Below are positions 7,652 through 10,600 of a stretch of 64,000 nt of DNA, piece by piece. Below the pieces are notes generated by a model, which was not told the DNA's origin, ran no database searches, and saw only the letters and a list, made by a program, of their open reading frames with translations. This DNA is from Escherichia coli. Its GTDB lineage: Bacteria > Pseudomonadota > Gammaproteobacteria > Enterobacterales > Enterobacteriaceae. The position numbers were made by a program, and so were the translations under genes. Location of the stretch: NCBI RefSeq assembly GCF_003334815.1, contig NZ_QOWO01000004.1, one strand, 5' to 3'. Position 1 is the stretch's first letter, and each line of letters starts with the position of its first letter.

Positions 7652-10600
7652 ATGAGCAAACAATCACAGCATGTATTAATTGCCCTGCCCCACCCGCTGC
7701 TTCACCTGGTCAGTTTAGGTTTAGTCTCGTTTATCTTTACCCTTTTCTCGCTTGAGCTTTCGCAGTTTGGCACCCAACTCGCCCCACTGTGGTTCCCGAC
7801 GTCCATCATGATGGTGGCGTTTTATCGCCATGCCGGGCGCATGTGGCCGGGAATTGCGCTGAGCTGTTCGCTGGGAAATATCGCCGCATCCATCCTGCTT
7901 TTTTCCACCAGCTCGCTGAACATGACCTGGACGACCAGCAATATTGTTGAAGCCGTGGTCGGGGCAGTGCTGCTACGTAAATTGCTGCCGTGGTATAACC
8001 CCTTGCAAAATCTGGCTGACTGGCTGCGTCTGGCACTCGGCAGCGCCATTGTTCCACCTCTGTTGGGGGGTGTTCTGGTTGTCCTGCTGACACCCGGAGA
8101 CGATCCTCTCAGGGCATTTTTGATATGAGTACTGTCAGAATCCATCGGCGCTCTGGCACTGGTGCCGCTGGGATTGTTATTTAAACCGCACTATCTGCTG
8201 CGCCATCGCAACCCACGGTTGCTTTTTGAGTCGCTGCTCACGTTAGCCATCACACTGACGTTAAGCTGGCTTTCGATGCTGTATCTGCCGTGGCCTTTTA
8301 CTTTCATTATTGTGCTGTTGATGTGGAGCGCCGTGCGCCTGCCACGAATGGAAGCCTTTTTGATCTTCCTTACCACGGTGATGATGGTGTCGCTGATGAT
8401 GGCCGCGGATCCCTCCCTGCTTGCTACGCCGCGTACGTACCTGATGAGCCATATGCCGTGGCTACCGTTTTTGCTGATCCTGCTGCCCGCCAACATCATG
8501 ACGATGGTGATGTATGCCTTTCGTGCGGAACGCAAACACATTTCCGAAAGCGAAACCCGTTTTCGAAACGCGATGGAATATTCCGCCATCGGCATGGCAT
8601 TAGTGGGCACCGAGGGACAATGGCTGCAATCCAACAAAGCACTCTGCCAGTTTCTCGGTTACAGTCAGGAAGAGCTGCGTGGACTCACCTTTCAGCAACT
8701 GACCTGGCCGGAGGATCTCAATAAAGATCTCCAACAGGTTGAAAAGCTGATAAGCGGTGAAATAAACACCTATTCAATGGAAAAACGTTACTACAACCGC
8801 AATGGCGATGTTGTCTGGGCGTTGCTTGCCGTCTCTCTGGTGCGCCACACGGATGGCACGCCGCTCTATTTTATCGCTCAGATTGAAGACATTAACGAGC
8901 TAAAACGCACCGAACAGGTCAATCAGCAACTGATGGAGCGCATCACTCTGGCTAACGAAGCGGGCGGGATTGGCATCTGGGAGTGGGAGTTGAAGCCGAA
9001 TATTTTTAGCTGGGATAAGCGGATGTTCGAGCTGTATGAAATTCCTCCGCATATCAAACCGAACTGGCAGGTGTGGTACGAGTGCGTGCTGCCGGAAGAT
9101 CGCCAGCATGCCGAAAAAGTGATTCGTGATTCGTTGCAATCACGCTCGCCCTTTAAGCTGGAATTTCGCATTGCTGTGAAAGATGGCATCCGCCATATCC
9201 GCGCCCTCGCCAACCGGGTACTGAATAAAGAAGGCGAAGTCGAACGCCTGCTCGGCATTAATATGGATATGACTGAGGTTAAACAGCTTAACGAGGCATT
9301 GTTTCAGGAAAAAGAGCGCCTGCACATTACGCTTGATTCCATCGGTGAAGCCGTGGTCTGTATTGATATGGCGATGAAAATTACCTTTATGAATCCGGTG
9401 GCGGAGAAGATGAGCGGCTGGACGCAGGAAGAAGCGTTAGGTGTTCCGCTCCTGACGGTGTTGCATATTACTTTTGGCGACAACGGACCATTAATGGAGA
9501 ACATTTACAGTGCCGACACCTCACGTTCCGCGATCGAACAAGATGTGGTGTTGCACTGTCGGAGCGGCGGCAGTTACGACGTGCATTACAGTATTACGCC
9601 GTTAAGTACTCTGGACGGCAGCAATATTGGTTCGGTTCTGGTGATTCAGGACGTTACCGAATCACGCAAAATGCTGCGCCAACTTAGCTACAGCGCCTCC
9701 CATGATGCACTGACGCATCTCGCCAATCGCGCCAGTTTTGAGAAGCAACTGCGTATGCTGCTGCAAACGGTAAACAGTACACATCAGCGACATGCCCTGG
9801 TGTTTATCGATCTTGATCGCTTTAAAGCGGTGAATGACAGCGCCGGGCATGCGGCGGGCGACGCTTTGCTGCGCGAACTGGCGTCGTTGATGCTGAGTAT
9901 GCTGCGTTCCAGCGACGTGCTGGCGCGACTCGGTGGGGATGAATTTGGTCTGCTGCTACCAGACTGTAATGTTGAAAGCGCGCGTTTTATCGCTACACGC
10001 ATTATCAGTGCCGTGAATGACTATCACTTTATATGGGAAGGCCGTGTGCATCGGGTAGGTGCCAGTGCCGGGATTACCTTGATTGATGACAACAATCATC
10101 AGGCGGCAGAAGTGATGTCGCAGGCTGATATCGCCTGTTATGCCTCCAAAAATGGTGGACGGGGCCGGGTGACGGTTTACGAACCACAGCAAGCTGCCGC
10201 ACATAGCGAACGGGCGGCGATGTCGCTTGATGAACAGTGGCGGATGATTAAAGAGAATCAGTTGATGATGATGGCCCACGGTGTCGCTTCGCCGCGGATC
10301 CCGGAAGCGCGTAATTTGTGGCTGATTTCGCTTAAACTCTGGAGTTGCGAAGGCGAGATTATTGATGAACAAAAATTTCGTCGTAGCTTCAGCGATCCGG
10401 CACTTAGCCATGCTCTTGACCGACGGGTATTCCACGAATTTTTCCAGCTGGCCGCAAAAGCGGTTGCCAGTAAAGGCATAAGCATCGCCCTCCCCCTTTC
10501 CGTTGCCGGTTTGAGTAGCGCCACGCTGGTGAATGATCTGCTTGAGCAGCTGGAAAATAGCCCTCTACCACCACGGTTATTACACCTGATTATTCCGGCT

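Follow-up and report, generated by a model that had tools for sequence, protein, structure and literature searches.

Does an Escherichia coli strain whose dgcE (yegE) gene is interrupted once, by an in-frame opal codon, still possess a working DgcE? The question is raised by a 64,000-nucleotide stretch of E. coli contig NZ_QOWO01000004.1 (RefSeq assembly GCF_003334815.1), analysed at its full length and referred to below as the window. Among the diguanylate cyclases of E. coli, DgcE is the major one, and it acts as the top-level trigger of CsgD, curli, and phosphoethanolamine (pEtN)-cellulose; a dgcE deletion strain has very low cyclic di-GMP (c-di-GMP), and DgcE ties the level of this messenger inversely to the membrane potential (PMC13031359). 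A preliminary description of the window had left three options: inactivation of the gene, a truncated product made by reinitiation, or a sequencing error. The evidence presented here argues for the first. A G-to-A transition in the ancestor of a small lineage converted the Trp159 codon into TGA (W159*) and probably left that lineage without functional DgcE or with very little of it, a reading to which we assign a probability of about 0.82.

The dgcE locus and its opal codon

Translation of the plus strand yields a dgcE frame that opens with ATG at 7652 and ends with the natural stop at 10967-10969 (1105 codons plus stop). Upon re-reading, the coordinates, the local peptide context, and the count given in the preliminary description proved right: TGA at 8126-8128 is the sole internal stop of the frame, which is consequently not the uninterrupted 1105-amino-acid frame of an intact dgcE. 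When a 3.4-kb query around the frame was compared with complete E. coli genomes, it matched annotated dgcE in 5,417 of 5,426, with a nucleotide identity of 99-100% over 3.4 kb in 5,401 of them. The closest match was E. coli 52F4, isolated from a calf in Switzerland (100%), and the runners-up reached approx. 99%. The gene order udk-dgcE-alkA is common to the window, 52F4, C7, and CFSAN061769; given this context and the 99% identity to annotated dgcE, a chance frame is no concern, and the earlier identification of the gene holds. The intact orthologue has the Pfam architecture MASE1 (residues 19-294), a run of three PAS domains (within 303-672), GGDEF (682-838), and EAL (897-1088); the same order and the GGDEF motif are encoded in the window. 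The locus is thus a genuine dgcE gene, though not an intact one. Its features, all on the plus strand, are as follows (domain boundaries are taken from Pfam on the intact orthologue):

7652..10969, plus strand: dgcE frame, interrupted once; assigned by translation, by its identity to annotated dgcE, and by the Pfam domains of the intact orthologue
7706-8533, plus strand: MASE1
7937..7939, plus strand: codon 96, AGC (Ser) for ATC (Ile), I96S, with the change at 7938, in a hydrophobic segment of MASE1; from comparison with ten relatives
8126..8128, plus strand: premature opal stop W159*, TGG to TGA by G-to-A at 8128; in frame, TGG in relatives, seen in several independent assemblies
8558-9667, plus strand: three PAS domains
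9695-10165, plus strand: GGDEF domain
9932-9946, plus strand: intact GGDEF active-site motif, residues 761-765, 3' of the premature stop; its position fits D763/E764 in PMC6510439
10340-10915, plus strand: degenerate EAL domain
7652..8128, plus strand: N-terminal open reading frame (ORF), 158 amino acids, with approximately the first five hydrophobic segments of MASE1 and no cytoplasmic domain; exact product P0016 / CAM9323753.1
8162..10969, plus strand: longest downstream in-frame ORF, 935 amino acids from GTG171, with part of MASE1 plus PAS, GGDEF, and EAL; P0001 / CAM9323829.1

The last two entries are the halves into which the ORF listing splits dgcE (7652-8128 and 8162-10969), and the precomputed Pfam assignments agree, with MASE1 in the first and MASE1, PAS, GGDEF, and EAL in the second.

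Codon 159 is TGG (Trp) in the relatives C7 and CFSAN061769, which identifies the change as a G-to-A transition at 8128 and bears out, by alignment with other strains, the Trp codon that had been expected there. An exact 61-mer around the TGA was found in one of 5,412 matching complete genomes, namely 52F4, whereas the other genomes listed differ from it by one base; a variant 61-mer carrying a single-nucleotide polymorphism (SNP) of a sub-lineage matched no additional complete genome. A hydropathy scan, which agrees with the ten-segment model of MASE1 proposed by Pfiffer et al. (PMC6510439), puts W159* where about the sixth of ten hydrophobic segments begins. Since codon 159 falls within residues 19-294, the stop, as had been proposed, interrupts the N-terminal membrane domain. 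A sense codon of the orthologues replaced by an in-frame stop defines a nonsense pseudogene, and the PGAP/RefSeq annotation labels dgcE of 52F4 as such, with the remark 'internal stop'. Over its full 64 kb, the window is collinear with positions 302268-366267 of the 52F4 record and differs from it at six positions only; a literature search on strain 52F4 found no publication.

The lesion is not confined to these two genomes. In an exact-sequence look-up covering NCBI and Logan run assemblies, the exact 158-amino-acid product was present on 28 contigs and the exact 935-amino-acid product on 24. Six records were seen to carry the TGA (52F4, GCA_965212685.1, ERR10679590, SRR10024312, SRR31283624, and SRR29542882); every copy fetched has TGA at codon 159, with 0-4 SNPs relative to the window over 8-17 kb, and the internal diversity of the lineage is approx. 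1-2 x 10^-4 per site. One of the fetched lineage records has the 52F4 allele at window position 5651. The lesion is thus both real and heritable, on the evidence of at least six records with SNPs of their own and of 24-28 contigs: W159* is an inherited allele, fixed in one bovine-associated lineage that includes 52F4 and the genome of the window.

The rest of the gene shows little other change. The 200 nucleotides 5' of dgcE, which are promoter-proximal, and the start codon are identical to those of intact relatives. Compared with ten relatives outside the lineage, the only private dgcE substitutions are I96S and W159*, with no private synonymous change. Within the lineage, dgcE contains three SNPs (G166D, L663P, and one synonymous change), too few in a young lineage for a test of selection. 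The two non-synonymous changes, G166D (8148) and L663P in the third PAS domain (9639), are carried by a sub-lineage and lie 3' of the stop; they are compatible with relaxed constraint, though again too few. Neither the repaired protein (S96 with W159) nor that of the presumed ancestor (I96 with W159) is present in a collection of 15 billion proteins. A 158-amino-acid fragment with I96 was considered as a clue to the lineage ancestor, and hence to the order of I96S and W159*, and was rejected because it belongs to a different dgcE allele. Together, these comparisons indicate that the inactivation of dgcE is recent on the scale of species diversity. As the lineage is young and has few private changes, the open frame downstream of the stop is uninformative on continued function.

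Because the stop precedes all of the cytoplasmic domains and a deletion of MASE1 is null in K-12, the lineage is expected to be null or nearly null for DgcE signalling. After the TGG-to-TGA transition at Trp159, ribosomes would terminate after 158 residues, within MASE1 and 5' of all catalytic and dimerization domains, so that PAS, GGDEF, and the degenerate EAL would not be produced as part of the normal protein; nonsense polarity would probably also leave less of the downstream mRNA. As a consequence, CsgD, curli, and pEtN-cellulose would lose their top-level trigger, with a corresponding biofilm phenotype. In K-12, strains lacking MASE1 and strains lacking dgcE share the null phenotype for CsgD, curli, and pEtN-cellulose. 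The former still contain the protein, but without MASE1 the activating GTPase RdcA has no place to dock (PMC6510439). The effect on curli and biofilm control that the preliminary description anticipated is in line with this K-12 result and would follow from it by analogy. The next gene, alkA, is convergent with dgcE, so the stop should have no polar effect beyond dgcE itself. Inactivation is therefore the best supported of the three original options: everything after residue 158 is lost, RefSeq lists dgcE as a pseudogene, and the whole lineage has inherited the allele.

Recurrent loss of dgcE in E. coli and Shigella

W159* is already annotated in RefSeq and is one of a published class of natural dgcE knock-outs. 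Natural dgcE pseudogenes of E. coli and Shigella include those of 52F4, HS (W124*), PSS-12, Z1323CEC0013, E2865, and S. flexneri 2457T (S2255). The allele of the window resembles them in the gene affected, in synteny, and in having a single point lesion before GGDEF with the rest intact; moreover, several of them are, like W159*, Trp-to-stop changes in MASE1. It differs from them in the codon hit (159), in the lineage, and in the private I96S that stands alongside. Among 18 complete genomes outside the lineage, three have independent disruptions of dgcE (PSS-12, Q326* by TAA; Z1323CEC0013, C772* by TGA; and E2865, a frameshift), although the 18 are a convenience sample in which some isolates share one protein. 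This proportion is close to the nine pathogenic dgcE-disrupted strains with which Povolotsky and Hengge (2016) are credited in PMC11327459. Also in the 90% cluster of N-terminal fragments are truncations of the frameshift and insertion types, as well as a fragment from Shigella.

The same codon has been hit elsewhere. A 158-amino-acid fragment with the ancestral I96 occurs on 96 contigs and derives from a dgcE allele that differs from that of the window at 59 sites. This I96 allele exists in two forms that differ only in the stop, which is TGA in GCA_027985445.1 and TAG in GCA_958335795.1, at 4475-4477 of each locus. Between the window and the I96 TGA allele, differences at 8092 and 8188 flank the stop, so that the two could have a common origin only through recombination of a patch of less than 96 bp. 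Trp159 has thus become a stop codon on at least three separate occasions.

Such recurrence might suggest that Trp159 is a mutational hotspot. As a control, hypothetical truncations at the Trp codons W124, W206, and W214 were looked up in the same way:

W124*: stop TGA, 2,954 index blocks
W206*: stops TAG and TGA, 34 blocks
W214*: stop TGA, 45 blocks

As all three truncations were found too, the hotspot was rejected. W124* occurs in 52 complete genomes, including that of the reference commensal E. coli HS, and NC_009800.1 is among the carriers. Single-base changes can introduce a stop into dgcE in 343 ways, 95 of them transitions, and 23 of its codons are TGG; given how deeply E. coli has been sampled, recurrence at any one Trp codon is to be expected. 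The pattern is one of pervasive, repeated loss in a loss-tolerant gene and not of a special site. As a separate observation, W124* carriers come from pigs, poultry, cattle, dogs, and humans, and the stop lies at 870-872 in the three loci that were fetched.

Engineered alleles provide the closest functional comparison. The MASE1 deletion and GGAAF alleles of Pfiffer et al. (2019; PMC6510439) are null for CsgD, curli, and pEtN-cellulose, and this is the outcome expected here. They are, however, in-frame deletions or active-site changes made in K-12, with a normal protein level; with W159*, in contrast, the cytoplasmic part is probably not made, while a 158-amino-acid membrane fragment may be. 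The degenerate diguanylate cyclase genes of Shigella flexneri (PMC11327459) share with W159* a premature stop before GGDEF and possible in-frame starts downstream of it. Shigella dgcE differs in that its lesion is associated with an insertion sequence at residue 366, that a Met is available at residue 330, and that activity is seen mainly upon over-expression (PMC11327459).

Residual DgcE and other readings of the stop

Several points weigh against a complete loss. The frame runs open through all 947 codons that follow W159*, and the GGDEF motif is intact, so that residual activity is possible. In S. flexneri, over-expression of a dgcE with a premature stop raised c-di-GMP and its deletion lowered it (PMC11327459). 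Furthermore, Trp-tRNA(Trp) decodes UGA at a low frequency in E. coli (PMC10570021), and such reading would restore exactly wild-type DgcE. Finally, csgD, pdeR, dgcM, mlrA, rpoS, and rdcAB all lie outside the window, which means that the phenotype is not predictable with certainty.

The first way in which activity might survive is reinitiation at one of the in-frame codons GTG171, TTG175, TTG190, or GTG228, which would yield a truncated PAS-GGDEF-EAL form of DgcE that still makes c-di-GMP. These codons lie 34-207 nucleotides 3' of the stop, and the 935-amino-acid ORF from GTG171 is listed as a separate protein by gene callers and in public annotations. Starts near the stop, however, are poor. 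GTG171 and TTG175 are non-ATG codons without a Shine-Dalgarno sequence (-1.7 and -2.8 kcal/mol), no in-frame start with a ribosome-binding site was found near the stop, and the only ATG that overlaps the stop is out of frame. In particular, two features of the region, both on the plus strand, are relevant:

8125..8184, plus strand: out-of-frame ATG (8125-8127) in an ATGA overlap with the premature stop, opening a 19-codon ORF MSTVRIHRRSGTGAAGIVI with its stop at 8182-8184; from reading of the sequence, its use being conjectural
8333..8335, plus strand: in-frame GTG at codon 228, preceded by the best of the Shine-Dalgarno-like sequences (GGAG, -5.6 kcal/mol); as a start it is speculative, and its product would retain two hydrophobic segments

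The ATGA overlap was created by the W159* mutation itself, and its ORF passes the nearest in-frame restart codons; it would divert reinitiating ribosomes out of frame across GTG171 and TTG175. A premature stop leaves mRNA untranslated and so prone to Rho-dependent termination, and the mRNA 3' of W159* would be liable to it. A product made from GTG171 would, in addition, lack half of MASE1 and begin partway through a hydrophobic segment. DgcE without MASE1 is stable and dimerizes well, yet a full deletion of MASE1 is null for CsgD and matrix even at a normal protein level (PMC6510439). The Shigella genes dgcE, dgcQ, and dgcN, which have premature stops, do raise c-di-GMP, and more than one protein species is seen from them (PMC11327459). 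On balance, of the truncated product suggested in the preliminary description, the existence of in-frame starts stands, but those nearby lack a Shine-Dalgarno sequence and ATGA favors restart out of frame; a truncated DgcE that still makes c-di-GMP is unlikely.

Readthrough of the UGA would act differently. If Trp-tRNA(Trp) read the codon often enough, the allele would be leaky, a hypomorph and not a null, and, since the ancestral residue is Trp, its product would be wild-type DgcE in meaningful and possibly heterogeneous amounts. Trp-tRNA(Trp) is in competition with release factor 2 (RF2) at UGA, and the outcome is heterogeneous from cell to cell and greater at 25 °C than at 37 °C (PMC10570021); matrix production is likewise a low-temperature, stationary-phase trait (PMC6510439). 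The dgcE frame 3' of the stop is fully intact, as readthrough would require, but the lineage is too young for this to inform. The base after the TGA is G and does not provide the leaky context, which, under a rule said to go back to Poole et al. in 1995, is a following A or C. Nor is there a stimulatory structure, as the RNA 3' of the TGA folds no better than shuffled controls (z = -1.07). Ordinary UGA readthrough is a small fraction of translation, from approx. 0.1 to a few percent, and is lower outside K-12, whose RF2 is weak. DgcE is, moreover, a scarce protein with rapid turnover to begin with, and the persistence of a TAG allele at codon 159 shows that such alleles can survive without being leaky. 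No tRNA gene, and hence no suppressor tRNA, is present in the 64-kb window. All of this makes a leaky allele with a meaningful supply of DgcE improbable.

A broader version of this idea would regard the Trp-to-opal alleles in MASE1 (W124*, W159*, W206*, and W214*) as leaky hypomorphs maintained by selection. If this were true, a trickle of wild-type DgcE varying with the cell, the temperature, and cyclic AMP would make matrix production a form of bet-hedging instead of a population-wide commitment. No positive evidence for this reading of the opal Trp alleles was found, and it is very doubtful.

That the stop is a sequencing or assembly error and the true codon TGG, the third option of the preliminary description, is refuted, since TGA is read in several independent assemblies and sequencing runs with SNPs of their own. 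In favor of an error, the same assembly carries a homopolymer frameshift in yehA (G7 vs G6), and the six differences between the window and 52F4 are noise-like (five non-synonymous, four transversions). The records with TGA, however, are at least six in number and come from different accession series, each with additional SNPs; the exact split proteins are found on 24-28 contigs; and W159* is a substitution and not a change in homopolymer length. An error at this codon is thus exceedingly improbable.

The weakest proposal, in which UGA serves as a selenocysteine codon or another functional recoding site, has in its favor only that an in-frame UGA stands in an otherwise open frame, and it is rejected as next to impossible because aligned relatives have TGG and the exact TGA 61-mer is found in one of 5,412 complete genomes, so that the UGA is not conserved, because equivalent alleles use TAG, and because positions 7400-8600 contain no selenocysteine insertion sequence (SECIS) element or other Rfam match even at E up to 10 and the RNA 3' of the UGA shows no significant fold. 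Loss of DgcE, complete or nearly so, accordingly remains the preferred interpretation of W159*.

Other features of the window and the meaning of dgcE loss

The six differences between the window and the 52F4 record, the only ones over 64 kb, lie at 5651, 45013, 54193, 54935, 56541, and 61893. Four are transversions and five are non-synonymous (yegW V215L, yehC K95E, yehD P55A, apbC T168N, and W849R in a DUF4132 protein). The window usually holds the odd allele, a pattern that resembles noise more than natural divergence; 5651 is excepted, being a true polymorphism common to other members of the lineage. Use of the window as an independent confirmation of 52F4 was rejected, since the six differences are noise-like.

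The window has one other pseudogene, yehA, on the minus strand at 50254-51289, which encodes a fimbrial adhesin-like protein of the yehABCD operon and is frameshifted at a G7 run (50912-50918). CFSAN061769 has G6 at this site, and only 10 of 4,477 genomes fall within the exact-match band, including that of an unrelated human isolate. The run could be the result of homopolymer slippage, possibly with on/off switching, or an error of long-read assembly. Among other differences from CFSAN061769, the window has one annotated copy of an Ibs type I toxin gene (approx. 17674-17733, between mdtA and yegL), where CFSAN061769 has three, and mdtD is intact in the lineage but split by an ISVsa5 insertion in CFSAN061769; the regions of the CFSAN061769 locus compared for these two differences are 37250-40003 and 47730-48446. 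A RelE/ParE-ParD type II toxin-antitoxin pair at approx. 29726-30320, between yegP and trhP, is also present in CFSAN061769.

With regard to the biology of the organism, W159* predicts the loss of the main source of c-di-GMP, together with the RdcA/RdcB and membrane-potential input to CsgD, curli, and cellulose. This would mean a weaker matrix biofilm at low temperature and bears on persistence outside the host. The allele does not challenge current understanding; it is one more case of the repeated knock-out of dgcE in natural E. coli and Shigella. Such losses are often G-to-A changes at Trp codons of MASE1, and they suggest that selection on matrix production driven by DgcE is frequently relaxed or negative.

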